Source: a virus
Virus record (IMG/VR): IMGVR_UViG_3300045988_159115
Reading direction: 5' to 3' (one strand)
Length of the DNA: 64,000 bases
A model generated the notes under the pieces. That model had not been told where the DNA came from and searched no databases. It saw only the letters and a list, made by a program, of their open reading frames with translations. Made by a program: the position numbers and the translations under genes. This document shows, one piece after another, positions 1,200-34,514 of this stretch; positions within the stretch are counted from its first letter, which is position 1, and each line of letters starts with the position of its first letter.

Positions 1200-3482
1200 A
1201 TGTCTAAAAAGAAAAATGGGTTTGTAGATTTTGCAAACCAAGTTCGTCCGGTATTTATCAATCCGGATCCCTCTGTGAAAGAGGACATTCATTATCTGGG
1301 CTATACTCTGAAAGCCCAGCGTCGGTCTCGTGATGAGCAGGCTGCCTTGACGCTCGATGCGTTGATTGCTCTCGATGATATGGCAACCGAAATTGAAAAG
1401 AAGACCGGTAAGCCTGTTGACATGAACAAGGTTCGTGCAGAGGCTAAGAAAGAGAAATGCAAGAAAGGAGATACTGTCGTTGTCAAGGGTAAGCATGTTC
1501 CGACGAAGATTACGACAGAGGATCTCCTGAATCAGCTTCCTGTATGTTATCCGATTTTGAATGATTCTGAAGATGAGGAGGAAGAGTCTTCTGATGTGTC
1601 TGATAACGATCTGATTCTGAGTCAGATGACGGAAGAAGAGGAACCTGAGGAGAAGGACAACGGAAAGTTCGTTGGTGTCTTCAAGTATGCTCAGGCAAAT
1701 GACTCTGACGATTCTGATGAGGATGATGAGGATGACGACGAATCAGAAGAGGACGATGACGAAGAGGAAGAAGATTCTACCGATGAGTCTGACGAAGGTG
1801 ATGATTCTGAGGAAGAATCCGATGTCCATATCGACCCGGGTAAGTTCGGCGAGCCGGATGATGCTGATGATGAGGACTTCGAGAAATGGATGAAGAGTCT
1901 TTCGTCCAATCTGGGCTTTGAGTATAATCCGGAGGATTCTTTCTTGAAGAAAGGTAACAACGGAGTCCCTGAGTCTTTGGAATTGACTCCTCCTGTTCCG
2001 AAAGTCGATGATGATGAGGATGACGAAGAGAGTGAACCTCCGAAGAAGGTTGATTTGGAAGAGGCATCTAAGCACGATGATTATCTGAAGAAGATTCTCG
2101 ATGCTGCTCGGAATGATTCTGGATTTGGTCAGAATGATGTTGTCAAGCAGGAGAAGCCGAAAGAGCCTGAGACAATTCCTCCGGAGGTTTTGGAACAGGC
2201 GAAGGCAAAGGAACCTGTGCCTCTTGTGTTTGAAGAGATCAAAGCTCCGATGCCCCATGACGTTCAGTTTGTGTCTCACGATATTAAGTATACGATTCCG
2301 ATCGAGAGTCAGTTCAATTCTCTCCATATCTTCTTCAAAGACAATCCGGTTTCTCAGCAGCTGTTTGATAATGTCGTCAAGATTGGTGATGGTGTCAATG
2401 CTCTGTGCATCAATCTGGATTATCTCAAGGTGAATCCGAATGCGAACACGATCGTTGGGCACAAGGATACCATCGAAGCATTCGATTGGTTCATGAATTC
2501 CGCAATTCATTTCCGTCCGAGTTTCGTTATGTCTCGTGATGAGTTCGCAGCATCCATGGCAACGATTACTGAGTTCAATGATACTCAGTATAAGTTCTTC
2601 CCGGTTGGTACGAATTATGTTGCGGGATATTATGCGGACAATGAGAGCTTTGACAACTTTGCCATTGCTTTCAATTATCTTGCAGAGCACGGTATCTGTG
2701 AGACGTTCTTCAAGAAGTATCTTGAGACGGTTATGGCAGAGTCCAGTTTCAGCTTTACGAATGCAACGATGCCTCAGGTTGCAGCGATTTGCAAGTCTGA
2801 AGACAATGCTCGGGCAATGAAGGCATTCTTCCATAAGTTCTATTTGGATCCGGATACTGAGATGACTGCTGGGAATACTCCTGCGAACAAAGACATCTCT
2901 GAGTATCTCGTTGATACCAAGTGGAACGATCCTGAGTTCATTGGTTCCATCTTCCAGTTGATCATGGATGCCAATGAGCCTGAGGATGATGATCCGATCG
3001 AAGGCGTTGACGAAGAAACCGATGCAGAAGCAGCACGTTTGAATGCAATCTATGATGAGCAGAAAAAGCGTGTTGAGTCTGGAGAAGGGATTGATCCGTC
3101 CGTTGCGATGGCCACTGGAATGCCTCTGACTCCGGATATGATTGCAACCGATGAAGAGATTGCAGAAGCGACTGGAGTCTCTGATGCGTCTGAAAAGAAG
3201 CGTGAACTTCTGACGGATGTTGCTGAAATTCTCGCGCCTATTAATGATCCGGCAAAGCTTGATCAGATCATTGCGCGTTATAAGCAGATTGGTGATCCGA
3301 ATTACAAAAAGGAAGAACCGAAGCAGGATTCGTCTGACGATGATGACGAAGACGATGATGCTTTCGATGAGGATGACTTCTTCCCGGATCGTCGGAAGGA
3401 AGAGAAGCGTGCAGCAACCATTATGCGTACTCCTCAGAAAGACGACGATGAGGACGAGAACTTCGTCATTACTCGTCGTTGA
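1200..3482 (+). CDS. large acidic protein with long Asp/Glu low-complexity tracts, function unknown
   Basis: Track ORF 1188-3482; AAAGGAG SD and ATG 1200. D/E runs lie at roughly aa 120-290 and again at the C-terminus. The middle part (about aa 340-600) looks globular. Confidence 0.75.
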   Translation: MSKKKNGFVDFANQVRPVFINPDPSVKEDIHYLGYTLKAQRRSRDEQAALTLDALIALDDMATEIEKKTGKPVDMNKVRAEAKKEKCKKGDTVVVKGKHVPTKITTEDLLNQLPVCYPILNDSEDEEEESSDVSDNDLILSQMTEEEEPEEKDNGKFVGVFKYAQANDSDDSDEDDEDDDESEEDDDEEEEDSTDESDEGDDSEEESDVHIDPGKFGEPDDADDEDFEKWMKSLSSNLGFEYNPEDSFLKKGNNGVPESLELTPPVPKVDDDEDDEESEPPKKVDLEEASKHDDYLKKILDAARNDSGFGQNDVVKQEKPKEPETIPPEVLEQAKAKEPVPLVFEEIKAPMPHDVQFVSHDIKYTIPIESQFNSLHIFFKDNPVSQQLFDNVVKIGDGVNALCINLDYLKVNPNANTIVGHKDTIEAFDWFMNSAIHFRPSFVMSRDEFAASMATITEFNDTQYKFFPVGTNYVAGYYADNESFDNFAIAFNYLAEHGICETFFKKYLETVMAESSFSFTNATMPQVAAICKSEDNARAMKAFFHKFYLDPDTEMTAGNTPANKDISEYLVDTKWNDPEFIGSIFQLIMDANEPEDDDPIEGVDEETDAEAARLNAIYDEQKKRVESGEGIDPSVAMATGMPLTPDMIATDEEIAEATGVSDASEKKRELLTDVAEILAPINDPAKLDQIIARYKQIGDPNYKKEEPKQDSSDDDDEDDDAFDEDDFFPDRRKEEKRAATIMRTPQKDDDEDENFVITRR

Positions 3483-4296: not shown

Positions 4297-5100
4297 ATGG
4301 CAGAAGAATATAGTAAGCTATACCTCAAAGATAATTACCTCAATAAAGGAATTTCCATTTTAACTGGAAAGACGATTATTGAGTATGACTTAAAATCAGC
4401 AAATACTAGCCTGTGCTCTGAATACCATCTTTTACCACAGGATCAGATTGAAAAAATATCGGCTCTACCAAGAAGTAAACGAGTGGTGAAGATTGGTAAG
4501 CTGTGTAGAAAAAATAAAGAGTTTAATGAAGGATTAAAGAAAGCATTCGTTGACATTCGTAGAAGATTCTTTGAAGCAAATAATATCCAAGATGAAGATA
4601 TTCTTGCGATCAAGAAAGATGCAATCTTTTGCCTTCGGAAATGCAAGGTAAATGAATTTGGCCCATGCCTATTCAGACCGAAAAATGTCTATAGCTCTTA
4701 TCTCTATTTACCACCACTGGAGCTCTACTACAAAGGCTCATATTTGCCTAGCAAAGAACTACTTGCCGTGAAGGGAATCTCTGATGAGACTCTACATCTT
4801 CACGAAGATTACATGCTCACATTTTTCAAACAACTTTTCAGACATATTGAGGAAGGAAAACAACACAACATTTTTCGATATCTTTCAGATTTTACGACAG
4901 CGTATAAGCTGAAACAGCTAGAACCTGGGTACTATCGAGAATTCAACCAGAATAGTCTAATGATTGATGAAGGTGGAGAAGTCACGTACGATGATGAGAC
5001 TTTCATACCATATGAAGGATCGGAGAAATCAGCTCATCTAAATATCGACTATAACTTCTCTAAGGTGATAATTCCTCTCCTCAATATTCTGATATACTGA
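4297..5100 (+). CDS. hypothetical protein (AT-rich codon usage)
   Basis: Track ORF 4213-5100 begins inside the upstream terminator. AAAAGGAGG SD plus ATG 4297 (MAEEYSKLYLK) is the credible start. Class B motif at 4265. Confidence 0.7.
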   Translation: MAEEYSKLYLKDNYLNKGISILTGKTIIEYDLKSANTSLCSEYHLLPQDQIEKISALPRSKRVVKIGKLCRKNKEFNEGLKKAFVDIRRRFFEANNIQDEDILAIKKDAIFCLRKCKVNEFGPCLFRPKNVYSSYLYLPPLELYYKGSYLPSKELLAVKGISDETLHLHEDYMLTFFKQLFRHIEEGKQHNIFRYLSDFTTAYKLKQLEPGYYREFNQNSLMIDEGGEVTYDDETFIPYEGSEKSAHLNIDYNFSKVIIPLLNILIY

Positions 5101-5113
5101 GGAGAGGATTGAT

Positions 5114-5530
5114 TTGCTCGAAGTTATTTACAACGAAATGTATGGGGTATGCCAACCGGATGGATTGATTCCTGATTGGATCAGCAATTACTTTTATAAG
5201 AATCACGACGATATCATGTCGGATGGGTTCTGCTGTAAGCTTTATGTCTCACAGTATCAGTTCATTGATGATCTGATTATCTTCCTTAAACTGACAGACT
5301 ATTACACTCCGCATGTGAAATTCTTCTATCATGAGAGGGAATGCTTCAAGGTAAAACAGAAATGGAATACGATTGATTTCCATCCCTATAAATTCCGAGA
5401 AGAACTTGAAAAGGCTAAGTATCGGTACGATATGATGCCGAATAAAATCTCCACGTCTCCTGCTCAGATTGAGAAGAAGTACGTGGAGGAAACTGGCCAT
5501 TACCAGTACGAATTTACTTTGAGTTCTTGA
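5114..5530 (+). CDS. hypothetical protein
   Basis: Track ORF; TTG start 13 nt after the previous stop, GGAGAGG SD. Same AT-rich codon style as 4297-5100. Confidence 0.55.
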   Translation: MLEVIYNEMYGVCQPDGLIPDWISNYFYKNHDDIMSDGFCCKLYVSQYQFIDDLIIFLKLTDYYTPHVKFFYHERECFKVKQKWNTIDFHPYKFREELEKAKYRYDMMPNKISTSPAQIEKKYVEETGHYQYEFTLSS

Positions 5531-6834: not shown

Positions 6835-9800
6835 ATGGCTGATATTAATATGGTAAGTCAGCTTTCAAAAGACTTTATGACCATCGTACAAGATTCTGTC
6901 ATCAAGTATAAAGTCTTAGCTGACGAATCAGAGACTTTGGAAAGTATGCGGAACGGCGATCTCTACGTAAGAGCAATGCGCAAAGAAGATACTTTTGAAG
7001 GTTACGAAAATTTCACTGAAGAAGAAATTCTCGAAGTTTATGATGCTGCGGGAATTACGATCACACGAGGGGAACTGCTTGATTATGTCTATAATAATCG
7101 GGAGATTCCTGTCATTTATAAATACAAAAATGCTGATGGTACGATCGGTTTCCAGCATGATGTAAGAAAAGATCTCGTCGAGAATCGACGCAAGAAGATT
7201 ATCTCTACCTATGTGGAAGAGAATAACTACTATCGCATGCTGATCGGTCTTCCTGATCGAGATGAAGATCCGGATGAGTATTTTTACGTACCTGCTGACA
7301 TCGCAGAAGAATATAATCTTCCCAGCGATGTCGCTATTCATGAACTGGATATTGGTCAAGTATCAGTGCTTCAAGCAATTGGATACATTGATAAACTGAT
7401 TGCTGAGAATCCTACTAAGAAATATTTGAATTATCTTGGTAGTAAAGCAGTCGACCTTGTGACAGCAAGAAGTGCAAAGGCTTTTGATATTATCCGAGTT
7501 CCGAATATTTCTTCTGCTACGATGTGGAATAGTTTCTCTTTGATCTATTCTCAGTGCAGAGAATATTTTATGGTGACGATTTATGTCCCCGAGCATCGCC
7601 AGACGATTGGGTATTATGACAATTTCATTGCTCTGTGCATCATGGTGATGACTCTTCAGCAGTTCGTTGCTCGTATTTTGAAGTTCACGATTGAGCGTGA
7701 TTTCTTTGATGAGTATTGTGTGAGATGCCTGTTTAATTGCTATGGCGTTCCGTATGATAGTGCATTGGATAATGATACGAAGCTTCAAATCGTTCAGAAT
7801 CTGAATCTTCTCGTTCAGAATAAGGGTACAACGAAAGTTCTTGTAGACATCGCATCCATCCTTGGATTCGATCGTCTTAAGATCTATAAATACTGCCTGG
7901 TTAAAGATCGGCTGTTTGACGAAAATGGATTGCCTATTGTGGCAACGAAGAAAGATCCTGCTACAGGAAGAGAAGTTCCTGATTATGAGACGATGTATGA
8001 CGTTTATTTCAAGAAGATTGATGTGAGCGCTCATGACTACTATCATGCTCTTCAGAAAGAAGCTATTTCTGAATCGTATAGTAGCGTTACTTCTCCTGAT
8101 CCGTACTGGATTGATGACGATGAGTTAAAGAAATCATTGTATGAGATTGAGTATAACTATGCTGAGACAAAGTACATGGGTGTCTCAATTTCGTATCGAA
8201 TGACTCGACTTTTCTTTGATAACGTCTATGCTCTGAAGATGCTTCTGGATAATCGTTTTAAGGAATACACGATTTTCCTTGATCTTCCGAAAATTCTTAC
8301 CTATCAGAGCATTAGCATCTTCGATGCGATCGTTACTCTTTGTGCTCTTACATGTAAGATGAATAATCTTCGTGGTAACATCTTGTATACCCCTTCTAAG
8401 ATTCTTCATGTGATGGGATTCAACTTCCGTGAGAATTTTGATAAGATTCGTGAGAAGGTTATTCTTGGTTATGAGTATAAAGAGAATCCTAAGGAAGAAG
8501 AGAAGGAAGCGTATGAGAAGAAGCTGAAGTCCAGTCCGTATTATGACAGACTGAATGATGAGCTTGCTAAGTACTTTGAGCGTCCTGAGATGGATGGTCC
8601 GTATACGGCAGAGAATCTGAATATGATGTATTCGGATATTCTTACGATGTACGATTTCCTTCTGAATAAAATGGCTCATGCGGAAACGATTGAAGAATAT
8701 CGTCTGTATAAAGATTTCTATTATGCAGCATATTATGCTGAAGAAACGCAGGATATTTTTGCAATCGGTGACTCGAAGCCGTTTACCGATTGGGATACCA
8801 TCACTCAGAATGATGGATTCACAAAAGGATGGATTCTTGCTCACGTTGATACTACAAAAGATGCAGAGCATTGTCTTGTCCATGATAAGACTACGATTAC
8901 GACATGCAATTATCTGAGCAATCTGTTTAAAGATATCCAGGAAGGCTCTTATGTGGAGTTCCACCCGGCATCTAGCACATGGTCTCAGGTATATGAGTTC
9001 GATGCCAACGATACCTATATCAGAAGTTATAATCCTGCTTATGATTACGATAGCGGAAAGAGCTTTATTAAGTTCCTTCCAATTCGTGGTCATAAATATT
9101 ATATCAGTATGCGCCCATCTGATGCTGCCATTTCAACACGAGACAATCGAGTCATTTTCGATGATGAACTTGCTGGTATGGTAAATGGATGTCGTCTGGA
9201 GTTTGCTCCTAGATATGCATCAACGTTTATGGATTATCTGATGTACCGGAATCCGGCACTTTGGGCATTCGTCGAAAGTACTGACAAAGATCAGGTTCCT
9301 CAGTATGCAAATCATATCATCAATCGTCTTTTGAAGCTGATTCCTTCTTTGAGAACTCTGGGTTCGTCTATTGGATATTCCTCTACGATGGAGGATGTTC
9401 TTCTGAGATTCATCCGGTTCTTCAAATCCTATACAACAGACCTTCTGAATATGGAAGTTATCTATGTCTTGGATATGAAGCCAGAGAGTTTGCTCCGTCT
9501 AATGGATTATGGACGATATATCGTTACATTGTATCCGAAAGATGACCAGTTATTTGGCTATACAGACATGCTGGAAGCTTCTATTACGGAGCATATGGAT
9601 ACGAAGTTGACATTCAGAGATAATGTGAACGTGTCTTCCATTTTGTATCTTTTCTCTGATCTTCGGTTCATTGATGACATCCATCATATCCAAGTAGATA
9701 TCCGAAAGAAAGATGATCTCAAGATCAATGATAGGAATCAGTTTGAACTGATCACAGATTATATCTGGCTTCAGTCGATTCTTCATATTCATGATTGGTT

Positions 9801-10524
9801 CCGGTATGAAGTTATCTATAAGATGTATGAGAACCGAATTCCTTTCCGAGATGAAATTCTCAGGACTTTTATAGATCTCGTAGCAAACGACACTCAATTT
9901 GGCTTCTATGATATGCTCTTCGATTATTCCAAGTTTATTCATCCAGATACTTACATGAAGTTTAAGGATGGATTGGATTATCAGACGTATTACCCGATGC
10001 AGACTGGATATACGCTTAGAGATAGATCTGATGTCGTGTCAAAGACTGATGAACTCAACGATAAGACCTTCCGTCTCTACGTAGAGAAATTCTTTAAGAA
10101 AGAGATTGAAGTCTTTGATAAAGACGGATTCAGGTTCACTGATGACACAGATAAATTTGCTATTCTTTTACAGGATAAAACTTATCTGCGCTATCGTGAT
10201 GCAATTCGCATTGAAGTTCTTATGAGACTCTTTGATAGAAAGACCTTCACTGATCAGATGAATCATATGCAAGTTGTAATTGATCGACTGATGAGTAAGT
10301 ATCATTTCACGGATGCTCATAAAAGCACTCATGGTGATTATTTGACTCCGGATGGATACCATTTCTCTGATGAAGTTTCCTATATATCGAAAGAGTATCT
10401 CGCAAAGCACGGTGCAGCATCTCATATGGGATTCTATGACTTTATCATGGCTCCCGAGATAAATGAATCGGTAAATACAAAACTTGGATTTAAAGACGAA
10501 TGCAGAATCTTCTATGAAGAATAA
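6835..10524 (+). CDS. very large protein (1229 aa), possible virion component, function unknown
   Basis: Uninterrupted track ORF; GGAGGTGAG SD; class B motif at 6783-6794. I recognised no enzymatic motif. Confidence 0.8.
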   Translation: MADINMVSQLSKDFMTIVQDSVIKYKVLADESETLESMRNGDLYVRAMRKEDTFEGYENFTEEEILEVYDAAGITITRGELLDYVYNNREIPVIYKYKNADGTIGFQHDVRKDLVENRRKKIISTYVEENNYYRMLIGLPDRDEDPDEYFYVPADIAEEYNLPSDVAIHELDIGQVSVLQAIGYIDKLIAENPTKKYLNYLGSKAVDLVTARSAKAFDIIRVPNISSATMWNSFSLIYSQCREYFMVTIYVPEHRQTIGYYDNFIALCIMVMTLQQFVARILKFTIERDFFDEYCVRCLFNCYGVPYDSALDNDTKLQIVQNLNLLVQNKGTTKVLVDIASILGFDRLKIYKYCLVKDRLFDENGLPIVATKKDPATGREVPDYETMYDVYFKKIDVSAHDYYHALQKEAISESYSSVTSPDPYWIDDDELKKSLYEIEYNYAETKYMGVSISYRMTRLFFDNVYALKMLLDNRFKEYTIFLDLPKILTYQSISIFDAIVTLCALTCKMNNLRGNILYTPSKILHVMGFNFRENFDKIREKVILGYEYKENPKEEEKEAYEKKLKSSPYYDRLNDELAKYFERPEMDGPYTAENLNMMYSDILTMYDFLLNKMAHAETIEEYRLYKDFYYAAYYAEETQDIFAIGDSKPFTDWDTITQNDGFTKGWILAHVDTTKDAEHCLVHDKTTITTCNYLSNLFKDIQEGSYVEFHPASSTWSQVYEFDANDTYIRSYNPAYDYDSGKSFIKFLPIRGHKYYISMRPSDAAISTRDNRVIFDDELAGMVNGCRLEFAPRYASTFMDYLMYRNPALWAFVESTDKDQVPQYANHIINRLLKLIPSLRTLGSSIGYSSTMEDVLLRFIRFFKSYTTDLLNMEVIYVLDMKPESLLRLMDYGRYIVTLYPKDDQLFGYTDMLEASITEHMDTKLTFRDNVNVSSILYLFSDLRFIDDIHHIQVDIRKKDDLKINDRNQFELITDYIWLQSILHIHDWFRYEVIYKMYENRIPFRDEILRTFIDLVANDTQFGFYDMLFDYSKFIHPDTYMKFKDGLDYQTYYPMQTGYTLRDRSDVVSKTDELNDKTFRLYVEKFFKKEIEVFDKDGFRFTDDTDKFAILLQDKTYLRYRDAIRIEVLMRLFDRKTFTDQMNHMQVVIDRLMSKYHFTDAHKSTHGDYLTPDGYHFSDEVSYISKEYLAKHGAASHMGFYDFIMAPEINESVNTKLGFKDECRIFYEE

Positions 10525-10533
10525 GGTCTGAAA

Positions 10534-10545
10534 ACATTAGTGTAA
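10534..10545 (+). promoter_or_regulatory. class B motif ACA-N6-TAA
   Basis: CTGAAAACATTAGTGTAA; 56 nt upstream of ATG 10602. Confidence 0.6.
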
Positions 10546-10601
10546 CCTGATTTTTTGAGAACCTGCATTACTCAATATACTAAGAAAGGATGATGAAATC
10601 T

Positions 10602-11513
10602 ATGATTAAGAAACTTAACGATAGATTTTCCATGAATGACAAGGTCGACATTGGCAATGACCATCACCATCGGAATACCCTGTGGGCTCGTACCCAGATC
10701 ATTGGTGGCTACGGCCTCCATAAGAATCCTGAGACTGGTCTTTCTGAACTTGATGAGGTCGTGTTCGAGACTGAGAACATGGTTCCTATTGGCGGCGTCC
10801 AGTTTGCTATGGAGCAGATCTTTGGTGTGAAGGGCCCTCTTGAGGTTCCTTCTCTGAATAAGGATCTTGGCATTGCAACAGGCGCTACTGTGAAGCCGAC
10901 TGCCCCCAACCCTCATGCATATGGTACGAAGGTTTGCCTGTTCGGTATTGGCGTCAGTGGTTCTGCTGAGAACAACCTGACTGCTAAGGAAGTTAAGTAC
11001 CGTGACAGTGCTGTTGACGGTATGGTTCCATTCCGTTATACCAATGAGACTCTGTCAACTGATGATCAGAAGCGTTACTTTGGTAAGGTGAAGAAGACCG
11101 ATACAAACACCACCGCTTACTATCTGAAGCGTTTCGATGGCGAACCTGTCATCAAGCACTTCTATGACGATTCCACTGAGGATGGCGTGGATGGTTCTGA
11201 GGTCAAGAGCGATATCTTTACCAAGGATTATGGTAAGGGCGTTCAGACTCTGACTGAGATGAACCTGATCATCTCCAAGAAGGACATCAAGGAGTGGTTC
11301 ACTGCTCAGGGTAACGTTGAGGAGAGCCGTGTGAACTCCATTGCTCTGTATTCTGCCGTCTATGACGCGAATGCAAAGCTGAACCCTGCAGATACGAATG
11401 AGACTATGGGTGACTATACTGACATCCATCTGTTCTCTAAGCTGAACATCCCCACTGAGCCTATGAGCCTCACAAAGGATATGCACATCATTTATCGCGT
11501 TTACGGTTCTTAA
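10602..11513 (+). CDS. probably abundant protein of unknown function (structural candidate)
   Basis: Track ORF 10590-11513. The AAGAAAGGA SD overlaps the first two ATGs, so ATG 10602 is best spaced. Strongly G/C-ending codons. Own class B motif (10534) and own terminator (11552-11597), so it looks monocistronic. Confidence 0.8.
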   Translation: MIKKLNDRFSMNDKVDIGNDHHHRNTLWARTQIIGGYGLHKNPETGLSELDEVVFETENMVPIGGVQFAMEQIFGVKGPLEVPSLNKDLGIATGATVKPTAPNPHAYGTKVCLFGIGVSGSAENNLTAKEVKYRDSAVDGMVPFRYTNETLSTDDQKRYFGKVKKTDTNTTAYYLKRFDGEPVIKHFYDDSTEDGVDGSEVKSDIFTKDYGKGVQTLTEMNLIISKKDIKEWFTAQGNVEESRVNSIALYSAVYDANAKLNPADTNETMGDYTDIHLFSKLNIPTEPMSLTKDMHIIYRVYGS

Positions 11514-11551
11514 AATCAAACAGATATTTGATGCCTGTAAGCTGAAACTAG

Positions 11552-11597
11552 CCGCATGAATAAAATGACATTGCGTCAATTATTCATGCGGTTTTTT
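11552..11597 (+). terminator. intrinsic terminator
   Basis: CCGCATGAATAA / TTATTCATGCGG stem followed by TTTTTT. Confidence 0.8.
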
Positions 11598-11601
11598 GTT
11601 T

Positions 11602-11611
11602 ATATATTATA
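11602..11611 (+). promoter_or_regulatory. class A motif ATATATTATA (candidate early-type promoter)
   Basis: Exact 10-mer, just after terminator 11552-11597 and 67 nt upstream of the tubulin ATG 11679. Confidence 0.6.
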
Positions 11612-11630
11612 CTTAAGTACGAAAGCTGAA

Positions 11631-11642
11631 ACCATTAGTTAT
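11631..11642 (+). promoter_or_regulatory. class B variant (ACC-N6-TAT)
   Basis: CTGAAACCATTAGTTAT closely resembles CTGAAAACATTAGTGTA at 10528; 36 nt upstream of the tubulin ATG. Confidence 0.4.
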
Positions 11643-11678
11643 TCGTGCAAAAAAATATTTTTTTAGGAGGCATGATTT

Positions 11679-12824
11679 ATGCTAAGTATTTCTGTAGTGG
11701 GTATCGGTAACTGCGGTTCGCAAATCGCTGCGTTGGCTATGAAGAAGCTAAACGTACCTGTGATTGCGATCAACAGCAGTGAAAGAGATATCCAGACCCT
11801 GCCGGAAGACGTTCCGGTTTACTTGATGGGTGACGCCAAGGGCGCTGGCAAGCAGCGTATCATGGCAAAGCAGATGCTCAAGAAGTCCGTTATGGACATC
11901 CTTGAGAATCCGAAACTGAAGGACGTCTTCGCAAGTGACATCCTGTTTGTGGTGTCTTCTACTGGTGGCGGTACCGGTTCTGGTACTGCGATCCTGATGA
12001 CCAATATCATTCGTGAGGTCTACACGAAGGGTACTGTCGTCACGGTTGGCGTGCTTCCTACGCTCAAGGAAGCTCTGTCGACTCAGTTGAACAGCGTTGA
12101 GTATCTGAAGGAGCTGTATGGCACCATGACGGATACTACATATATGCTGTATGATAATGATCGTTGTTCGAAGAGTGCGATCGCCATGATGGATTCTGTG
12201 AACGAGCAGGTCGTCAACGATATGGATGTCATCCGCGGAACCTATCAGATTCCGACTCGTTACGCATCCATCGACGAGAGAGACATGCTCAACATCATCG
12301 GTACTCCTGGCCGTCTTGTTGTTGCTGGCGTTCGGGATATCGCAAAGCGTCGTGACGCAGATAACATCGACATCGAGGATGCTCTGATTGATGCTCTGCG
12401 TACCGCTCCGATTGCAGATCTCGAGAAGGATGGCGTGATTGCACGTACTGGTGTGATCAGTGCGCTGTCTTCTGATCTGAACGATCGGTTTGATACCCAT
12501 ATCCCGAAGGTTCTGAATGTCGTTGGTACTCCTGTCGAGGAGTTTGAGCATGTGGCGGTCAATACTGATCGTCATCTTCCGTCCAACGTCTTCATCGTGT
12601 GCTCTGGCATGAGCCAAGCAAACGATCGTCTTCGTAAGATCAATGATCGAATCGAAGAGATCAATTCTTTGCAGGAGAAGGCAAAGGCTGACGATTCTAT
12701 CATCTCCGAGATTGATGTTTCGAAGCTGAGCCAGAAGGTGAGCCACACCCGTACTCCTGCAAAGGAAAAGGAAGCAGGTACAGATTTCGACCTGAAGAGC
12801 ATCTTCTCGAAGTTCGGCATCTAA
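11679..12824 (+). CDS. tubulin/FtsZ-superfamily GTPase (phage PhuZ/TubZ-like)
   Basis: VVGIGNCGSQIA (G-box 1), tubulin signature SSTGGGTGSGTA, T7-loop-like YDNDR. AGGAGG SD 8 nt before the ATG. Confidence 0.9.
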   Translation: MLSISVVGIGNCGSQIAALAMKKLNVPVIAINSSERDIQTLPEDVPVYLMGDAKGAGKQRIMAKQMLKKSVMDILENPKLKDVFASDILFVVSSTGGGTGSGTAILMTNIIREVYTKGTVVTVGVLPTLKEALSTQLNSVEYLKELYGTMTDTTYMLYDNDRCSKSAIAMMDSVNEQVVNDMDVIRGTYQIPTRYASIDERDMLNIIGTPGRLVVAGVRDIAKRRDADNIDIEDALIDALRTAPIADLEKDGVIARTGVISALSSDLNDRFDTHIPKVLNVVGTPVEEFEHVAVNTDRHLPSNVFIVCSGMSQANDRLRKINDRIEEINSLQEKAKADDSIISEIDVSKLSQKVSHTRTPAKEKEAGTDFDLKSIFSKFGI

Positions 12825-12836
12825 GTAAGGTTTCAT

Positions 12837-12900
12837 AAGAGGGGAATAGTATTTTACCGAGGTGGTTACACTAAGGTAATTTTGGCTATCCCCTCTTTAT
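12837..12900 (+). terminator. large-loop hairpin after the tubulin gene (terminator-like; encloses class B motif)
   Basis: AGAGGGGA(A)TAG / CTATCCCCTCT arms, about 36-nt loop, followed by TTTAT. Confidence 0.4.
12868..12879 (+). promoter_or_regulatory. class B motif ACA-N6-TAA
   Basis: ACACTAAGGTAA, identical to the 12-mer at 63821; 52 nt upstream of ATG 12932. It lies in the loop of hairpin 12837-12900. Confidence 0.55.
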
Positions 12901-12931
12901 GGGATAAATAAATTCAAGGAGGACTCATTAT

Positions 12932-13918
12932 ATGAGTAAGGACAACAACAAAAAACGGGAATTTAAGATTCCTAAGGAAGTCAAGAATTTCCTCATGCCG
13001 TTCAAGAAGTGGCGTAAGGACAATGACTTTTACGAGAGCAAGAAGGATGCTCGTAAGGCCTATTACACCGAGAAGCTCGAGTGGATGGGCGAGAGTGTGA
13101 TTCCTCTGCTCGTCAGTTATGGCTATCGTCAGGAAGTGATTGAGATCAAGAACGACCTCTACGAAGGGTTGTCTGATCCCGAGTTCGTGAAGGCCTGCAC
13201 AAAGGCTGTCAAGAAGGGCGATGGTTTTGAGAACCAGTCCCTGTATGCAGTCCTGGTCCAGGACATGGCTGAGGCGCTGGCAAAGCAGGCTCGCGTTGAG
13301 TCTGCTAAGACTGGTGAGACCATCGTTACGGATATCGACGATATGGTTGAGCTGTCCAAGCTGGTTCTGGCAAAGAAGATCAAGAAGGCAAAGAAGGCCG
13401 GGATTGATGAAGCCACTGCATTCAGTGTGCTGAGCATCCTGCCGGATACTTCCATTCTGGATATCCGCAACGACAACCGCTGTAATAAGAAGTTCTACTT
13501 CTACAGAAAGCTTATCAATTGCCTGTATACTCTGGCAAAGGATAAGCCTCTGTGTGCACCGGTTGGTGAGATCATCGAATTCGTCTTCCGTAAGGGCGAC
13601 GACTTCATCCCCAGTTTCATCGTGTGTGCGATGCTGGAGCGTAAGGAGCGTTACAACAGCCTCAACAAGACTCAGCAGGAGGTCTATGACCAGCTGACTA
13701 CTTGGGCTTTTGGTAAGCTCGAGAGTTACGATAAGGAAACCATCACTGCCGCCCTGCGTCTGTATTACAACTGGCGCAAGGACGACGCAGCAAACAACCG
13801 TGATTCTCAGCGCCGATACTATGTGAGCAGCCTGCCGGAGAATGAATATCCGAAGACTGTCGCATGCATGAACAAGATCATCGCAAGCGGCGATGAGCAC
13901 ACCAAGGACTTTTTCTAA
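12932..13918 (+). CDS. basic, probably alpha-helical protein downstream of tubulin, function unknown
   Basis: Track ORF; AAGGAGG SD; G/C-ending codon usage like the tubulin gene; class B motif at 12868. Confidence 0.75.
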   Translation: MSKDNNKKREFKIPKEVKNFLMPFKKWRKDNDFYESKKDARKAYYTEKLEWMGESVIPLLVSYGYRQEVIEIKNDLYEGLSDPEFVKACTKAVKKGDGFENQSLYAVLVQDMAEALAKQARVESAKTGETIVTDIDDMVELSKLVLAKKIKKAKKAGIDEATAFSVLSILPDTSILDIRNDNRCNKKFYFYRKLINCLYTLAKDKPLCAPVGEIIEFVFRKGDDFIPSFIVCAMLERKERYNSLNKTQQEVYDQLTTWAFGKLESYDKETITAALRLYYNWRKDDAANNRDSQRRYYVSSLPENEYPKTVACMNKIIASGDEHTKDFF

Positions 13919-13936
13919 TAAAGGAGAGCAAGAATA

Positions 13937-14521
13937 ATGGGCAAGCATAATAATCGTTATGATAAGCGTAAGGGTGTTTCCGAGAAGGTGAGCACCAAGC
14001 TGTCCAAGCGTCTGGACGAGAAGAGCATGAGCGAGACGTTGAGCGTCAGCTGCATGAAGAATCCCGTTGAGTATGCTTCTAAGCATGCCAACAAGAAGCT
14101 TCGTCTGAAGGGTATCAGCAAGGCTGAGAAGAAGCTGCTGACCTGTGGCTGTGAGCACGTCATCATCAACAAGAAGGGTCGGCGCAAGGCTGCTCTGCGC
14201 CCTGCTGAGAAGGGCATGATGCAGTGCCGTCTGTGCGGCAAGATCATTTCTCCCACCATTCCCACCGAGGAGGATCTGGATAAGATCTGGGAGGCTTCCG
14301 ATGCAGTCGACAATCAGGTTCGTCTGATGGTCGGTATGCTGGATCTCGGCGCAAACGTCGATCGTGCAACCTATGCGTTCGCATGGCGTCAGAAGATGTG
14401 GCGTAAGTTCGAGGCCAAGATCATCAAGCTGGGTGCCAAGAATCAGGTGATCCAGGACAAGAAGCACGGCAAGGGCAACAACGACAACGATGGCTCCGGT
14501 GTTGCTGGCGAGTGGTATTGA
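13937..14521 (+). CDS. Lys-rich protein with CxC...CxxC zinc-ribbon-like motif, function unknown
   Basis: Track ORF; AAGGAG SD 18 nt after the previous stop. TCGCEH...CRLCGK. Terminator 14615-14666 follows. Confidence 0.7.
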   Translation: MGKHNNRYDKRKGVSEKVSTKLSKRLDEKSMSETLSVSCMKNPVEYASKHANKKLRLKGISKAEKKLLTCGCEHVIINKKGRRKAALRPAEKGMMQCRLCGKIISPTIPTEEDLDKIWEASDAVDNQVRLMVGMLDLGANVDRATYAFAWRQKMWRKFEAKIIKLGAKNQVIQDKKHGKGNNDNDGSGVAGEWY

Positions 14522-14614
14522 TCTACAGAGAAAGATAAGCTTAGCTACCTTATCTCAAAACGTGCTACAATCGCGTCAAAATTGAAGCACTGTGTTTAAC
14601 TGTAGTTAAATGAG

Positions 14615-14666
14615 AAGAATCCAATGTGATTTGTGTAATAGCAAATTCACATTGGATTCTTTTTTT
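14615..14666 (+). terminator. intrinsic terminator
   Basis: GAATCCAATGTGA / TCACATTGGATTC stem followed by TTTTTTT. Confidence 0.85.
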
Positions 14667-14745
14667 CGTGCTAGGAAGTCTATGATCCGAAAGGGATTTA
14701 ATCTCATAAATTGGGAAACTTTCCATTAATCCGTATAGGACTACG

Positions 14746-14774
14746 CATGAAAAACGAAAGGACGATATGAATGG
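14746..14774 (+). promoter_or_regulatory. conserved 29-nt leader with 7-codon uORF (MKNERTI) abutting the topoisomerase B-subunit start
   Basis: CATGAAAAACGAAAGGACGATATGAATGG. uORF ATG 14747 to TGA 14768-14770, then the main ATG at 14771. 28 of 29 nt are identical to 17372-17400. Confidence 0.6.
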
Positions 14775-17194
14775 CCCAATTTAAAGACGATAAGATGGAA
14801 TACATCGAATCGGATATTGAAAAGATCCAAATGAAAACCGGCATGTATATCTCTTATGTCGGTCGTAAAGGTGCACTGCATCTGGCAAAAGAAGTAATTC
14901 AAAATGCTATTGATGAATGTGCAAACCCCAAAAGTCCTGCTAAGAATATTCAGGTAACTCTTGACGTTTTGGATGGTTCTCTGATTGTCGAAGACGATGG
15001 TCGTGGCATTCCGGAGACTCAGGAGATCCCGATGGATATTCTGTGTACAAAACTGAATTCCGGTAGTAAGTTTACCCGTGAACAGGGTGGCGCTTCTTCC
15101 GGTGAAAACGGTGTCGGTCTGACTGCTACAAACGCACTGTCTGCCATGTTCCGTTGGGAATCTTACCGCGATGGAAATTGCCACCACATCGAGTTTGAGA
15201 ATGGTGTGAAGATTGCAGACGAGCATAAGAAGTCTAGCAAGAAGCATGGTTGTATTCTCAAATTCATTCCCTCTACGAAGTACCTCGGTAAATCAGCAGT
15301 CATCAATAAAGATGACCTGAAAGAATGGCTGGATGGTATTTCGTATTTCATCCCTTCTGATTGCAAGATCGTTTATACGGTCGAGAAGGGTATGGATAAA
15401 GTTATCTCCAGCACCAAGTATAAGTCTGGCAATATGAGTGATCTTCTGAAATCTCATCTGACAGATTCTGTCTTGGTAAAGCCGAAAGATTTCCACGGTG
15501 AAACCAAACTCGATGAGGATTACCGTGGAGAAAAGACGATTAAGAGAAGCCTGTCTCTTCAGTTTGCATTTGCATACACGACTTCTCTTGAGCCTTGGGT
15601 AGATTCTTTCTGTAACTACGTGAATACCACTTCTGGTGGCGTTCATCTGAATGCAGTCAGAGAAGCTATCTGGCGATTCTTTATGAAGAAGACAAATGAA
15701 GCTCTGAGTGAGAGAGAGAAGAATAAGTATTCTGTGTTAAAGGTTGATATTGAATCCGGTATGAATCTGGTTGTCAATATCTTCACCGATGCTCAGATGC
15801 AATTCGTTGGTCAGACCAAGAACGAGATCTCCAACGACATGCTCTTCGCTCCGATTAAGCAGCTCGCTTCCGATGCGATGGATGGATACTATTCCAAGCC
15901 GGAGAATAAGGACGAGCTGAATGCGATCGTGAAGGTTATTAAGACGAACTGCAAAGCTCGTGTTGATGCTTCCAAGATCCGTGAGCAGACGATCAAGGAG
16001 ACCGTCAATAAGTTTGACAAGCACAAGATTCCGAACTTCACTCCTTGCAATAACGATGGCAAGGCTTACAAAGAGCTTCACATCTGTGAGGGACGCTCGG
16101 CAGCTGGCTCTCTGGTTAACGGTCGTGATCCTGACACTCAGGCATTCTTCAGTTTCCGTGGCGTCACTGCGAACGGTTTTAAGCGTGACGCATCTACCAT
16201 CCTTGCCAACAAGGAATGGTATACCTACGTCAAGCTTCTGAAGACAAACTTTGGCCCGAAGTTTAACCTTGCCAATTGCTATTATGACAAGATTATCATC
16301 GAGACAGACTCCGATGTCGACGGCTATAATATCTCTTCTGGTATCGGTGCGTTCCATGCACTGTATATGCCGGAACTGGTTAAAGCCGGTAAGCTGTACA
16401 AAGCAATCGCTCCTCTGTACCATATCGACGATAAGAAGACTCCGTTTGTCCGTTCTAAGAACGAGTACATCGAAGCATATCAGGATAAGGTGCTGAAGAA
16501 CTATAAGGTCGCTCTTGATTCTTATGGTAAGGACTATCTGAAGAGTTCTGTCTTTAAGAAGTTCATCTATGATACGGAATTCTATCCTGATGAGCTGACT
16601 CGTGTCTCCAACCACTTCGGTGTCAATAAGTTCCTCATTGAGCGTATCGCCGCATACTTCGTTATCGGTGGTTATATGACGTCGGACATTCCCACTCTCT
16701 TTGGTAATCGGAAGTTCCTTCTGAAGTTCACCGAGATGCTCCAGTTGAAGTTCCCTGAGCTGAAAGTAACCGATAAGGGTTCTATCACTGGCATCATTGA
16801 TGGTAAGTTCCAGTCGATCAAGATTACCGATCGCTTCATCAAGAAGATCGAGGACCTCGCTCCTATCTACTCTGAGTATGGTTATATGATGAGAGTTTGT
16901 GAGAAGGATGGTCCTGAGATTCCGATGAGCATTGGTGAGTTCCTCGATTCTGCCAATAAGTACAAGGCGAAGATTCTGTCTCGCTTTAAAGGACTTGGCG
17001 AAGCAAACGGTAAGGAACTGTGGCAGACTACCCTTGACCCGAACAACCGTATTCTGATTCAGTTGACTATGGATGATGTTGAGAAGGATCTGAAGATCTT
17101 TGCAAAGCTCCATGGTACAACGGAAGAAGATCTGAGAGCACGTAAGGAAATGATGGCTGCTTACCGCATCAAGAGAGATGATCTGGATAACTAA
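14771..17194 (+). CDS. type IIA DNA topoisomerase, ATPase/Toprim (GyrB/ParE/T4 gp39-like) subunit
   Basis: GHKL motifs EVIQNAIDE and DDGRGIPE. Toprim motifs EGRSAAGS and ETDSDVDGYNI. Confidence 0.9.
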   Translation: MAQFKDDKMEYIESDIEKIQMKTGMYISYVGRKGALHLAKEVIQNAIDECANPKSPAKNIQVTLDVLDGSLIVEDDGRGIPETQEIPMDILCTKLNSGSKFTREQGGASSGENGVGLTATNALSAMFRWESYRDGNCHHIEFENGVKIADEHKKSSKKHGCILKFIPSTKYLGKSAVINKDDLKEWLDGISYFIPSDCKIVYTVEKGMDKVISSTKYKSGNMSDLLKSHLTDSVLVKPKDFHGETKLDEDYRGEKTIKRSLSLQFAFAYTTSLEPWVDSFCNYVNTTSGGVHLNAVREAIWRFFMKKTNEALSEREKNKYSVLKVDIESGMNLVVNIFTDAQMQFVGQTKNEISNDMLFAPIKQLASDAMDGYYSKPENKDELNAIVKVIKTNCKARVDASKIREQTIKETVNKFDKHKIPNFTPCNNDGKAYKELHICEGRSAAGSLVNGRDPDTQAFFSFRGVTANGFKRDASTILANKEWYTYVKLLKTNFGPKFNLANCYYDKIIIETDSDVDGYNISSGIGAFHALYMPELVKAGKLYKAIAPLYHIDDKKTPFVRSKNEYIEAYQDKVLKNYKVALDSYGKDYLKSSVFKKFIYDTEFYPDELTRVSNHFGVNKFLIERIAAYFVIGGYMTSDIPTLFGNRKFLLKFTEMLQLKFPELKVTDKGSITGIIDGKFQSIKITDRFIKKIEDLAPIYSEYGYMMRVCEKDGPEIPMSIGEFLDSANKYKAKILSRFKGLGEANGKELWQTTLDPNNRILIQLTMDDVEKDLKIFAKLHGTTEEDLRARKEMMAAYRIKRDDLDN

Positions 17195-24139: not shown

Positions 24140-24745
24140 ATGAAAACCAACAACATCATCAAGAACGCAAGCAAGGCCATCCGTAACGGCAGCAAGAACT
24201 ACATCGGTTACTGCAACAAGTGCGCCGCACAGCGTGCTGTCGCTCGCAAGAACGATGCCAAGTACGACAGCAAGGTCTTCGCTAAGGCCCTTGTTGGAGG
24301 CGCAGCGATCTATTTGACCGTTGCTGCTGTCGATTTTGCAATCGACGTTGCACCCATGATCGTTAATAAGATCAAGGGTGATGCGAAGAAGGCGCTCGAC
24401 GAGAAGAACTCGGTGACTGTCCAGACCATGGAACGAGAGATGGCTATGCGCAAGGCCACCCTCGAGAACACCGGGTACACTGACTACTACGTCAGCGGAG
24501 ACACCATGGCGATGAACCACGGTGAGCTCACTGGTGGCGTGATCACCAAGGCTTGCCTCGATGCTAAGCCTGGCACGCTGCCCAGAATCATCATTGGCAA
24601 CTCTGTCAGTGATGAGCATGTGGACAAGATCTACACCGTCGATGGTCAGCCGAAGTGCTGCCCTTACGGTGAAGACCCTGCAACCACCAAGCATGAGAAG
24701 GATGTCACCTTCCCGATGTTCGGTGACCACAAGGTTGAAGAGTAA
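24140..24745 (+). CDS. probably abundant membrane-associated protein, function unknown
   Basis: Track ORF; GGAAGGAG SD; G/C-ending codons; one hydrophobic segment, LVGGAAIYLTVAAVDFAIDVAPMIV. Class A motif at 24044. Confidence 0.75.
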   Translation: MKTNNIIKNASKAIRNGSKNYIGYCNKCAAQRAVARKNDAKYDSKVFAKALVGGAAIYLTVAAVDFAIDVAPMIVNKIKGDAKKALDEKNSVTVQTMEREMAMRKATLENTGYTDYYVSGDTMAMNHGELTGGVITKACLDAKPGTLPRIIIGNSVSDEHVDKIYTVDGQPKCCPYGEDPATTKHEKDVTFPMFGDHKVEE

Positions 24746-24788: not shown

Positions 24789-24968
24789 ATGAAAAACAAT
24801 AACAGCACGAGCACGTCGACCATCATCGCCAATGTGGTTGTGTCCACCGTATTCATGTACGGCTGGATGCGACTCATCCTGAAGGACGTACCGGAGTACG
24901 TCAAGAGCAAGGGCCTCTTGAAGGTGGCCAAGGAGAAGTATGATTCCTTCATGGCGAAGGAAGCATAA
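24789..24968 (+). CDS. 59-aa membrane peptide
   Basis: Not in the track (59 aa). AAAGGAG SD. MKNNNSTSTSTIIANVVVSTVFMYGWMRLILKD... Same G/C-ending codon style. Terminator 24977-25016 follows. Confidence 0.55.
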   Translation: MKNNNSTSTSTIIANVVVSTVFMYGWMRLILKDVPEYVKSKGLLKVAKEKYDSFMAKEA

Positions 24969-33213: not shown

Positions 33214-33636
33214 ATGAAAACCGATATTGCTGGTCTCGCAAGTTTCTATAAAAATGAGGCATGGAAGGACAATGAAGCGATTCAGAATAACTTCTCCATC
33301 CGTGTGAAGCCTTCCAACGTGAACGATCAGACGTCTCATGCCTCTATCACAATCACCATGACTCCCAAGTCTCAGCCGGATAAGGAGCTGTCTGCTTCTC
33401 TCTACATTGTGGAGAGCAACATGAAGGTTCGTAATCCGAAGACTGGTCAGGCTGCTGATGACTATACTCGCGTGGCCGTTATCTTCGTGAACAACCATTC
33501 TCACACTGTCATTTTCTCTTCCCTGTCCAAGAACGCTCTGGAGAAGAGCCAGAAGTACGTCATCCAGTATTTCCTGAAGCGTGCTTCTTACACCGATCCC
33601 AGCGTTCTGCCTGATAAGCCTGCTGACGAGGCTTAA
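33214..33636 (+). CDS. probably abundant 140-aa protein, function unknown
   Basis: Track ORF 33130-33636; GAAAGAGG SD plus ATG 33214; G/C-ending codons. Variant class B motif at 33135. Confidence 0.7.
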   Translation: MKTDIAGLASFYKNEAWKDNEAIQNNFSIRVKPSNVNDQTSHASITITMTPKSQPDKELSASLYIVESNMKVRNPKTGQAADDYTRVAVIFVNNHSHTVIFSSLSKNALEKSQKYVIQYFLKRASYTDPSVLPDKPADEA

Positions 33637-33800: not shown

Positions 33801-34514
33801 ATGGCAACGAAATCTCAGGCGTGGTTCGACGAATGTGTCGTCGACAACAAGAAGGAGCTTCTGGATATCGGTGAACTTGCAAATCACTTGATCCACGATT
33901 CCCTGTCTTTGGGTATCTCTGACCCGAAGACTACTGTGGCGATTTATGCCACGATCTTCGATGCTATCACCGATGTGGTGGCATCCAAGGAAGCAAACTA
34001 CGACCACTATGATCTGAACGTAGCGAATCGCTTCCTCATCGGTTATGATACGACCGATAACAAGGAGGACGAGAAGTCTGGCAACTTCATGGTCTACATG
34101 CAGCACATGGAAGCCACTCAGTCCGATAACTCCATTGATGACGACAACGATGATACCATCTCTCTGTGCGTCCAGTGGAATGCAAACAACATCAAGGAGC
34201 AGCAGGATGTTCTGAAGGATGTCGCCGGTAAGGCAAAGATCAAGATGGGCGACATCATCAACATCAAGCTGGAGAGCCATGAGTTCATCCTGCCGCTGTT
34301 CTGCATCATTCACGCATGTATCGTAAACTATGTGCGTCTGCGTCGTCGTGAAGAGAACGTGTCGGACTACAACATCAACGTTGCTGGCCTGTATACCATT
34401 GGCTGCCAGGTTGATGATGAGTCCAATGAAGAGATCTACTATACCCCGTCCATCAGCCTGAAGCTGAAATTTAAGAACGATGCTAAGGCAACTGGCGTAA
34501 AGGACGAGGACTAA
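33801..34514 (+). CDS. probably abundant acidic 237-aa protein, function unknown
   Basis: Track ORF; GAAAGGAAG SD; G/C-ending codons. Class A motif at 33658 with a 133-nt leader. Terminator 34547-34594 follows. Confidence 0.75.
   Translation: MATKSQAWFDECVVDNKKELLDIGELANHLIHDSLSLGISDPKTTVAIYATIFDAITDVVASKEANYDHYDLNVANRFLIGYDTTDNKEDEKSGNFMVYMQHMEATQSDNSIDDDNDDTISLCVQWNANNIKEQQDVLKDVAGKAKIKMGDIINIKLESHEFILPLFCIIHACIVNYVRLRRREENVSDYNINVAGLYTIGCQVDDESNEEIYYTPSISLKLKFKNDAKATGVKDED

Follow-up and report, generated by a model that had tools for sequence, protein, structure and literature searches.

A TubZ-like tubulin gene and its conserved downstream neighbor of apparently new fold in a family of uncultured AR9-like jumbo phages

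INTRODUCTION

To our knowledge, phage tubulins are understood in only two settings, namely, the partition of plasmid prophages by TubZ together with TubR and a centromere and the centering of a chimallin nucleus by PhuZ. TubR is a small winged-helix protein that binds the centromere and is encoded beside tubZ, usually upstream; the centromere, tubC, consists of iterated repeats; and TubY combines a MerR-like helix-turn-helix with a coiled coil and a lysine tail. We know of no dedicated neighboring partner gene for PhuZ. Here we describe a tubulin gene and its surroundings (positions 10,534 to 14,666) in a stretch of 64,000 nucleotides (nt) from IMG/VR virus record IMGVR_UViG_3300045988_159115, hereafter the window, which is the readable part of a gut phage genome of about 255 kb and of the AR9 type. 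An original prediction, made from the letters of the window, had placed the tubulin in an insulated, codon-optimized block of four genes. ORF (open reading frame) calls agree with the four plus-strand ORFs that it listed (the first can also be opened at 10590). As a single unit the block did not survive comparison with relatives, and gene order across these phages indicates that the conserved core is the tubulin plus the gene immediately downstream of it, which encodes a 328-amino-acid (aa) protein.

Several published results frame this comparison. In c-st, the accessory gene tubY lies downstream of tubZ (PMC7762940). Among jumbo phages, multisubunit RNA polymerases correlate with the presence of tubulin (PMC7824862), and AR9/PBS1, PALS_2, and phiR1-37 are reported to be without chimallin (PMC10299810); a 2026 review of jumbo phages treats their tubulin as PhuZ only. 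AR9 early promoters follow the consensus AAATATATATTAT-(6N)-G and its late promoters AACA-(6N)-TA/G, and AR9 genes that have both promoter types are continuously expressed (PMC5312081).

The window represents a third setting. Its TubZ-like tubulin belongs to lytic-type AR9-like jumbo phages, which abound in gut metagenomes of humans and ruminants, and lies in a module that lacks the known partners but has one strictly colocated gene of apparently new fold. This tubulin module is real, widespread, and unstudied. If the 328-aa protein is a partner of the tubulin, it would represent a new way to couple a bacterial-type tubulin filament to cargo, and it would raise the question of what job a tubulin does in a jumbo phage that is probably without a nucleus. 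The genes at issue are as follows.

11679..12824, plus strand: TubZ-like tubulin/FtsZ-family GTPase, 381 aa
12932..13918, plus strand: 328-aa basic (isoelectric point [pI] 8.7), all-helical protein; conserved neighbor of the tubulin and candidate partner
13937..14521, plus strand: 194-aa very basic (pI 9.8) protein, starting 18 nt past the 328-aa gene and in the same frame

RESULTS

Gene order around the tubulin

We compared gene neighborhoods among 79 related IMG/VR loci and 4 from other collections, whose ORFs were searched iteratively with the window proteins. A homolog of the 328-aa protein is present in 73 of 85 loci and in all 73 is the next gene after the tubulin on the same strand, with a gap of 26 to 334 nt by ORF calls, across a range of tubulin identity from 98% down to 33%. 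This adjacency persists in clades that have no nearby 1229-aa, 307-aa, 194-aa, or topoisomerase genes, and the nine loci with full flanks that lack the 328-aa gene all belong to the most divergent tubulin clade. Members of the 194-aa family were found in 57 loci, in a constant position behind the 328-aa gene; by this measure, the 194-aa gene is linked to the tubulin less tightly than its 328-aa neighbor. Conservation of the neighborhood, which the original prediction had named as a check on its block, was therefore strict for the 328-aa gene and looser for the 194-aa gene, but the first gene of the block proved to be an ordinary virion gene, as described below. On the evidence of this gene order, we consider the 328-aa protein a candidate new tubulin partner.

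The structure predicted for the 328-aa protein (predicted local distance difference test [pLDDT] score, 95; predicted template modeling [TM] score, 0.90) is all-helical. A fold search with this model found no solved structure (best E value, 0.63), and within a viral structure library it matched only three uncharacterized gut-virome proteins. Judged from the model, the protein apparently has a new fold, and because it matches no solved structure it would not be TubR-, TubY-, or chimallin-like. An exhaustive search of representative sequences gathered the family into 245 clusters at 50% identity, all of them unnamed; a word-indexed homolog search recovers only 6 to 8 proteins, even when run as a profile search. 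Pfam, PHROG, and a structure database, searched with profiles of the 328- and 194-aa families, returned nothing consistent, and tblastn gave no match to either protein among phages. In clades without the 194-aa gene, homologs of the 328-aa protein are longer (390 to 423 aa), and the tails of these long forms are either AT-hook-like (KRKPGRPKK) or basic and rich in N, Q, and R. The long forms include P0127, P0128, P0148, P0199, and related proteins, and those at loci L068 and L073.

The most divergent tubulin clade (L060, L065-L067, L070, L072, L074, L075, and L085) has an arrangement of its own, with an unrelated gene of 428 to 800 aa downstream of the tubulin and, upstream, a conserved pair of genes (∼320 and ∼360 aa) that are transcribed divergently. 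We considered whether the downstream gene could be a hidden homolog of the 328-aa gene and rejected this, as no relationship is detectable by hmmsearch or hhalign.

The 194-aa family has a conserved C-x-H...C-x-x-C zinc site, in keeping with the zinc ribbon predicted earlier for one of the two basic proteins, along with a lysine-rich tail and an invariant tryptophan (Trp193) near the C terminus. Profile searches with the 194-aa protein found no family or structure match. In most loci its gene lies just upstream of that for topoisomerase II B, and it stays behind the 328-aa gene where topoisomerase B has moved away (L033, L040, and L057). At 36 loci (e.g., L010, 10300-11238), a gene of ∼315 aa stands between the 328- and 194-aa homologs; it is absent from the window. 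A paralogous origin from the 328-aa gene was rejected for this insert, which is unrelated to the 328-aa family.

A TubZ-like tubulin with a conserved tail

The identification of the 381-aa product as a tubulin was upheld, with a score of 56.5 bits against Pfam Tubulin PF00091 (cutoff, 33; E value, 5.8e-15). The GGGTGSG signature at residues 96 to 102 is invariant in sets of 15 and of 55 family members. The sequence S197-I-D199-E200-x-D202, which we assign by position and pattern to the acidic residues of the T7 synergy loop, is likewise invariant across the tubulin family. Its structural model (pLDDT, 86) has the two-domain tubulin fold, and a fold search returned more than 1100 matches to solved structures at an E value of ≤0.001, of which the listed ones are all TubZ, CetZ, or FtsZ. 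The closest of them are two structures of c-st TubZ, 4xcq and 3v3t (TM score, 0.83 to 0.84; root mean square deviation, 2.8 to 3.0 Å), followed by CetZ, Bacillus TubZ, and FtsZ, and the order of sequence profile matches agrees. In profile searches, 4xcq was matched at 1.8e-17 and 3v3t at 4e-15 across the full length, with identities of 19 to 21%. PhuZ structures are absent from the top 60 matches by profile and the top 50 by fold; the best PHROG match, a weak one, is to phrog_4733, labeled "tubulin PhuZ" (5.9e-13). Going by profile and fold ranking, the tubulin is TubZ-like and not PhuZ-like. All of the catalytic and polymerization signatures of a cytomotive filament can be read in its sequence.

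In the model, a globular core is followed by a long helix (residues 315 to 342), a disordered linker (342 to 369), and a terminal amphipathic helix (372 to 378), an arrangement in the style of TubZ and FtsZ. The C-terminal tail is FDLKSIFSKFGI, and its motif is conserved: D-L-K-x-I-F-x-K-F is kept in every tubulin clade, whether the 328-aa gene is present or not. A dependence of the tail on whether a locus has the 328-aa gene was ruled out, the motif being equally conserved either way. Since the motif is kept even where the 328-aa gene is missing, the ligand of the tail is probably not the 328-aa protein, and this universal conservation argues for a universal ligand; it could be a second subunit, the membrane, or a protein of the host. 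The tail may be comparable to short amphipathic membrane-targeting helices and to the C-terminal peptide of FtsZ.

Related tubulins are numerous in gut and rumen metagenomes, where we counted 695. Among cultured AR9-like phages, tblastn with the tubulin found no match, and the sole match to any cultured phage was gp138 of Bacillus phage G (26% identity over 85% of the length). The combination of a tubulin with a split phage RNA polymerase, which the original prediction had called unusual, is unusual among cultured phages but common in gut and rumen metagenomes, to judge from these 695 tubulins and the 245 clusters of the 328-aa family.

Comparison with described tubulin systems

Among described systems, the locus most resembles TubZ partition. 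The best match of the window tubulin by both profile and fold is c-st TubZ, although their identity is low, and the two proteins have in common a GTPase core, a flexible tail, and a short conserved terminal segment. As with tubY in c-st, the candidate accessory genes of the window (those of 328 and 194 aa) lie downstream of the tubulin (PMC7762940). The lysine cluster at the end of TubY also resembles the lysine-rich tail of the 194-aa protein, in composition only (PMC7762940). Unlike c-st, a plasmid prophage, the carrier here is an AR9-like phage of ∼255 kb.

Specific components of TubZ partition were sought individually. Between 11513 and 11679 there is no ORF that could be TubR, as this 165-nt spacer holds only a terminator and promoters, and profiles of the 328- and 194-aa families gave no TubR match in the structure database. 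Neither downstream protein has the match to a MerR or helix-turn-helix family that would be expected of TubY, and both are unrelated to it. The intergenic regions from 10400 to 14800 contain no tandem or iterated repeats of the tubC kind. Because TubR, tubC, and TubY all failed to appear, the system should not be classified as type III partition. The statement in the original prediction that TubR, TubY, and chimallin are unrecognizable in the block thus agrees with family, profile, and fold searches.

PhuZ is likewise a phage-encoded tubulin of jumbo phages with their own multisubunit RNA polymerases, but it is not among the best sequence or structure matches, and the lineage of the window is AR9-like. 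We found no chimallin candidate within the 64-kb window. With AR9 itself the window shares the early ATATATTAT-N6-G and late AACA-N6-TA motifs, both enriched between genes, and a tubulin with both predicted promoter types would fit the continuously expressed class of AR9 genes (PMC5312081); by tblastn, AR9 and its cultured relatives have no match to the window tubulin or to the 328- or 194-aa protein. In phage G, gp137 (98 aa; L087, 4689-4985) lies directly upstream of gp138, in the position of TubR, and looks like a winged helix. No homolog of the 328- or 194-aa protein is found nearby in that phage, and the window has no equivalent of gp137.

Promoters, terminators, and insulation

The two motif classes that had been noted in the window correspond, by consensus match, to the early (class A) and late (class B) promoters of AR9. 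Although intergenic sequence makes up only 10.3% of the window, 18 of 23 occurrences of AACA-N6-TA (P = 3e-14) and 13 of 14 of TATATTAT (P = 2e-12) are intergenic, and TATATTAT-N6-G is seen 5 times versus 0.7 expected. The AR9 early/late promoter grammar, as far as motif matches can tell, reaches this uncultured phage family, of which the region is a clean example. The following elements surround the tubulin and its neighbors.

10533..10544, plus strand: predicted late promoter AACATTAGTGTA, an exact AACA-N6-TA, 45 nt upstream of the virion-protein gene
11550..11598, plus strand: intrinsic terminator with perfect 12-bp arms (11552-11563/11580-11591), then TTTTTT
11602..11617, plus strand: predicted early promoter ATATATTAT-ACTTAA-G, with the exact geometry of an AR9 virion RNA polymerase promoter and predicted start G11617
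11630..11641, plus strand: late-type variant AACCATTAGTTA with one mismatch (AACC for AACA), of putative function
12830..12905, plus strand: large stem-loop without a clean U-tract (folding free energy [dG], -35.8; z, -5.7)
12867-12878, plus strand: late-promoter-like site TACACTAAGGTA, inside the 12830-12905 hairpin, with one mismatch (TACA for AACA)
14612..14668, plus strand: intrinsic terminator with arms 14615-14632/14644-14661, then TTTTTTT, closing the 328-194 unit

Folding supports the proposed insulation at all three places. Both the first terminator (fold 11550-11593 plus U6; dG, -23; z, -4.3), which is conserved in L003 and L005, and the last (fold 14612-14665 plus U7; dG, -31.9; z, -7.0) are strong; a simple terminator scanner missed both because their loops are long. 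The hairpin at 12830-12905, having no free U-tract, is not a canonical terminator. Directly after the tubulin, a strong hairpin is found in 43 of 50 distinct relatives, with different stem sequences and often with TACATCTTTGTA following. In many clades, these hairpins differ in their stems yet resemble one another at the apex, GATAATAA(T/C)TTATC, seen within 100 nt past the tubulin stop codon in L013, L016, L021-L032, L041-L051, and L057. Across the family, this shared apex may signal termination or processing to the phage polymerases.

Upstream of the tubulin, TATATTAT recurs at 43 to 87 nt in many distant relatives, and the late-type variant at 11630 is kept in L003 and L005 (relatives of 72% identity) but not in L009 or at greater distance. 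The prediction that the tubulin is expressed through more than one phase of infection is accordingly well founded in its exact early promoter and in the AR9 precedent for such pairing, but its late site is a one-mismatch variant; of the motifs proposed as class B, those at 11630 and 12867 are both variants of this kind. A further sequence, AACAGATATTTG at 11519-11530, matches the AACA-N6-TG late form and is probably fortuitous, because it falls past the virion gene's stop codon but ahead of that gene's terminator.

The 10-nt direct repeat AAGCTGAAAC that had been described as bracketing the first terminator and the tubulin promoter is indeed present at both sites (11539 and 11623), but it also occurs at 2746 and 4906. 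Allowing one mismatch, its count is 9 versus 4.8 expected, which is not significant, and neither copy is conserved in the closest relatives. On these grounds we rejected it as a regulatory or centromere element; it is probably due to chance.

Codon usage and the antisense ORF

Codon usage in the four genes of the proposed block is distinctive in that A occupies 2 to 8% of third positions, versus 12 to 17% in the flanking genes and 33% in 4297-5100. Of the lysine codons, 94 to 97% are AAG, and of the leucine codons, 55 to 72% are CTG. The preference for G/C-ending codons claimed for the block is therefore present, mainly as an avoidance of A-ending codons, but it is graded along the four genes, with G+C content at third positions (GC3) of 0.55, 0.58, 0.67, and 0.71, and it is not unique to them, being seen also in the gene for the prohead protease and in several small ORFs. 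Small ORFs with extreme bias (GC3, 0.59 to 0.81) lie at 24140-24745, 24789-24968, 33214-33636, 33801-34514, 51629-52084, and 63079-63684 (minus strand); none of those scanned (all but 24789-24968) has a Pfam or PHROG match. Those at 24140, 33801, and 63079 (minus strand) stand right behind TATATTAT early-type motifs, and 51629 is farther downstream of one. The region 4297-5530, used for contrast in the original prediction, is in fact two ORFs in different frames, 4297-5100 and 5138-5530.

In relatives with genome G+C contents of 29 to 42%, homologs of the 328- and 194-aa genes also have a GC3 above that of their flanks. Because the bias recurs in genomes of such different composition, it is not an effect of local composition, which had been offered as the alternative explanation. 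The strong bias fits selection for high expression, as far as codon usage can indicate it.

The bias also accounts for a long reading frame on the opposite strand.

12914..14467, minus strand: 517-aa antisense ORF, a shadow of the codon bias

The genes at 12932 and 13937 are in the same frame, and from 12932 to 14521 there is not one TTA, CTA, or TCA codon, which leaves the antisense frame free of stops. Antisense ORFs of at least 200 aa occur in only 7 of 56 relatives. Since most relatives have no long antisense ORF, the 517-aa ORF is a shadow of codon bias and no gene, as had been proposed.

The upstream virion gene

10590..11513, plus strand: virion structural protein gene, 307 aa (304 aa from ATG 10602), phrog_19418

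Most database copies of this gene start at 10602. Its PHROG family, phrog_19418, is matched by 11 of 21 family members (best E value, 1.7e-11), and there is weak similarity to virion protein g233 of Yersinia phage phiR1-37 and to proteins of Staphylococcus jumbo phages. The 307-aa gene is always paired with the 1229-aa virion gene upstream of it, and both match PHROG virion-protein families. The two co-occur in only 39 loci, in 7 of which the 307-aa gene lies 0.6 to 2 kb upstream of the tubulin; it is absent from beside the tubulin in about half of the relatives. Because it belongs to a virion family and travels with the 1229-aa gene, often away from the tubulin, we regard it from its homologs and gene order as an ordinary virion gene outside the tubulin module. 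It is on this point that the four-gene block, read as one unit, comes apart, and one part of what the original prediction had named as its own refutation is thereby fulfilled.

Proposed mechanism and alternatives

Our best overall explanation, to which we give a little less than an even chance, is that the region consists of three insulated units, with a tubulin that works with a lineage-specific 328-aa accessory in DNA positioning. The three separately insulated transcription units would belong to an AR9-like jumbo phage with its own multisubunit RNA polymerases. One would be the late virion-protein gene (10590-11513), with its own late promoter and terminator and unconnected to the tubulin. 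The next would be the tubulin, placed behind an early-type promoter and a late-type variant and, because of that pairing, probably made throughout infection. The last would comprise the 328- and 194-aa genes, behind the hairpin and late-like site and with a strong terminator at the end. The tubulin would form cytomotive filaments, and the 328-aa protein would be a lineage-specific filament accessory, acting either as regulator or as cargo adaptor; nucleic acid binding would come from the 194-aa protein or, where its gene is missing, from the basic tail of the longer 328-aa homologs. The joint role of these proteins may be the positioning or segregation of phage DNA as it replicates in a Firmicutes host, in a system that would dispense with TubR, TubY, and centromere repeats and would probably involve no chimallin nucleus. 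A possible variant is partition during a carrier state, as in c-st. More doubtful is a fuller version, an undescribed tubulin-based DNA-positioning system made up of the tubulin, a 328-aa adaptor or regulator of a new class replacing TubR/TubY, and the zinc-site protein, in which filaments would be tethered through the conserved tubulin tail to the membrane or to a division protein of the host, in a large family of uncultured AR9-like Firmicutes jumbo phages of the gut and rumen that are probably without chimallin.

Several observations weigh against a tubulin-328 partnership of this kind. The link of the 328- and 194-aa genes to the tubulin is one of gene order only. A strong hairpin and usually a promoter-like site separate the tubulin from the 328-aa gene, so that coexpression is not required. 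The 328-aa model resembles nothing of known function, and profile searches detected no DNA-binding domain in the protein. The tubulin tail is equally conserved in the most divergent clade, where the downstream gene is of another family, which makes the 328-aa protein an improbable ligand for it. Each of the two late-type sites (11630 and 12867) deviates from AACA at a position conserved in AR9, and the absence of chimallin is known for only 64 of ∼255 kb.

Some of these points favor a reading in which gene order is simply inherited, with no coupling to the tubulin, and the 328- and 194-aa proteins are abundant DNA-associated factors (nucleoid, replication, or topology) working with topoisomerase II. 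We consider this unlikely but worth weighing, as both proteins are basic, a hairpin and promoter part both genes from the tubulin, the 194-aa gene is just upstream of topoisomerase II B in most loci, and replication genes are abundant elsewhere in the window. The adjacency of the tubulin and 328-aa genes nevertheless holds where the topoisomerase is 9 to 11 kb upstream or absent from a 21-kb locus, the 194-aa gene still follows the 328-aa gene when topoisomerase B has moved (the three loci cited above), and no nucleic-acid-binding domain was recognized in the 328-aa protein.

It is rather improbable that the 328- and 194-aa proteins are instead virion components made late and at high levels (e.g., internal head proteins or proteins that condense DNA) that extend the virion run 6835-11513, into which the tubulin would have been inserted. 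Such a role would suit their strongly basic character and lysine-rich tails, the late-promoter-like site upstream of the 328-aa gene, a codon bias akin to that of the prohead protease and 307-aa virion protein, and the virion proteins encoded by both genes upstream of the tubulin. Neither protein matches any virion protein by PHROG or tblastn, however, the promoter-like site carries a mismatch, and in clades without nearby 1229- and 307-aa genes it is the tubulin, not virion genes, that the 328- and 194-aa genes follow. A PhuZ-type spindle that centers a chimallin-walled nucleus encoded elsewhere in the genome, with the neighbors irrelevant, seems to us very improbable. It would account for the PHROG match to phrog_4733 "tubulin PhuZ" (5.9e-13) and for the multisubunit RNA polymerases, whose presence in jumbo phages is correlated with that of tubulin (PMC7824862), but c-st TubZ ranks first with no PhuZ structure in the top 50 to 60 matches, polymerase and promoters alike are of AR9 type, AR9/PBS1, PALS_2, and phiR1-37 are reported to be chimallin free (PMC10299810), and the 64-kb window holds no chimallin candidate.

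Phage lineage and the rest of the window

IMG/VR contigs of 255 to 259 kb encode proteins with 97 to 98% identity to those of the block, which itself had no match in a nucleotide search of 50,697 phage records. Identical proteins are present in nr as third-party annotation of an uncultured Caudoviricetes genome, in which the tubulin is labeled "Cell division GTPase" (DAY74586.1) and both downstream products are listed as hypothetical. The window encodes homologs of the split RNA polymerase subunits of AR9, which place the phage with AR9.

34611-36392: homolog of the AR9 non-virion RNA polymerase beta subunit (profile match 7s00_c, 8.6e-52)
42684-43904, minus strand: second RNA polymerase piece, matching phrog_2962 (RNA polymerase beta)

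The first of these is 31% identical to its AR9 counterpart. The closest cultured relatives of the polymerase subunit are BpSp, AR9/PBS1, LPJP1, and Staphylococcus jumbo phages, whose hosts are Bacillus, Listeria, and Staphylococcus, plus the Yersinia phage phiR1-37. A search of bacterial genomes with the tubulin alignment gave a single match, a 258-kb contig binned with a sheep Lachnospiraceae genome; as this was the only match, there is no sign of integrated prophages among those genomes. Ribosome sites of the window genes are AGGAGG. Given these sites and the Lachnospiraceae-binned contig, the host is likely a member of the Firmicutes.

The remainder of the window contains many replication genes. 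A 760-aa ORF at 1200-3482, with acidic short repeats at 1715-1771, has no counterpart in Pfam, in PHROG, or among solved structures. In the window, topoisomerase II B is encoded by one intact gene (14771-17194). In many relatives it is split into at least two ORFs (e.g., 526 plus 276 aa or 119 plus 690 aa; examples are L009, 12281-15133, and L011, 12125-15026), which suggests introns or inserted mobile genes.

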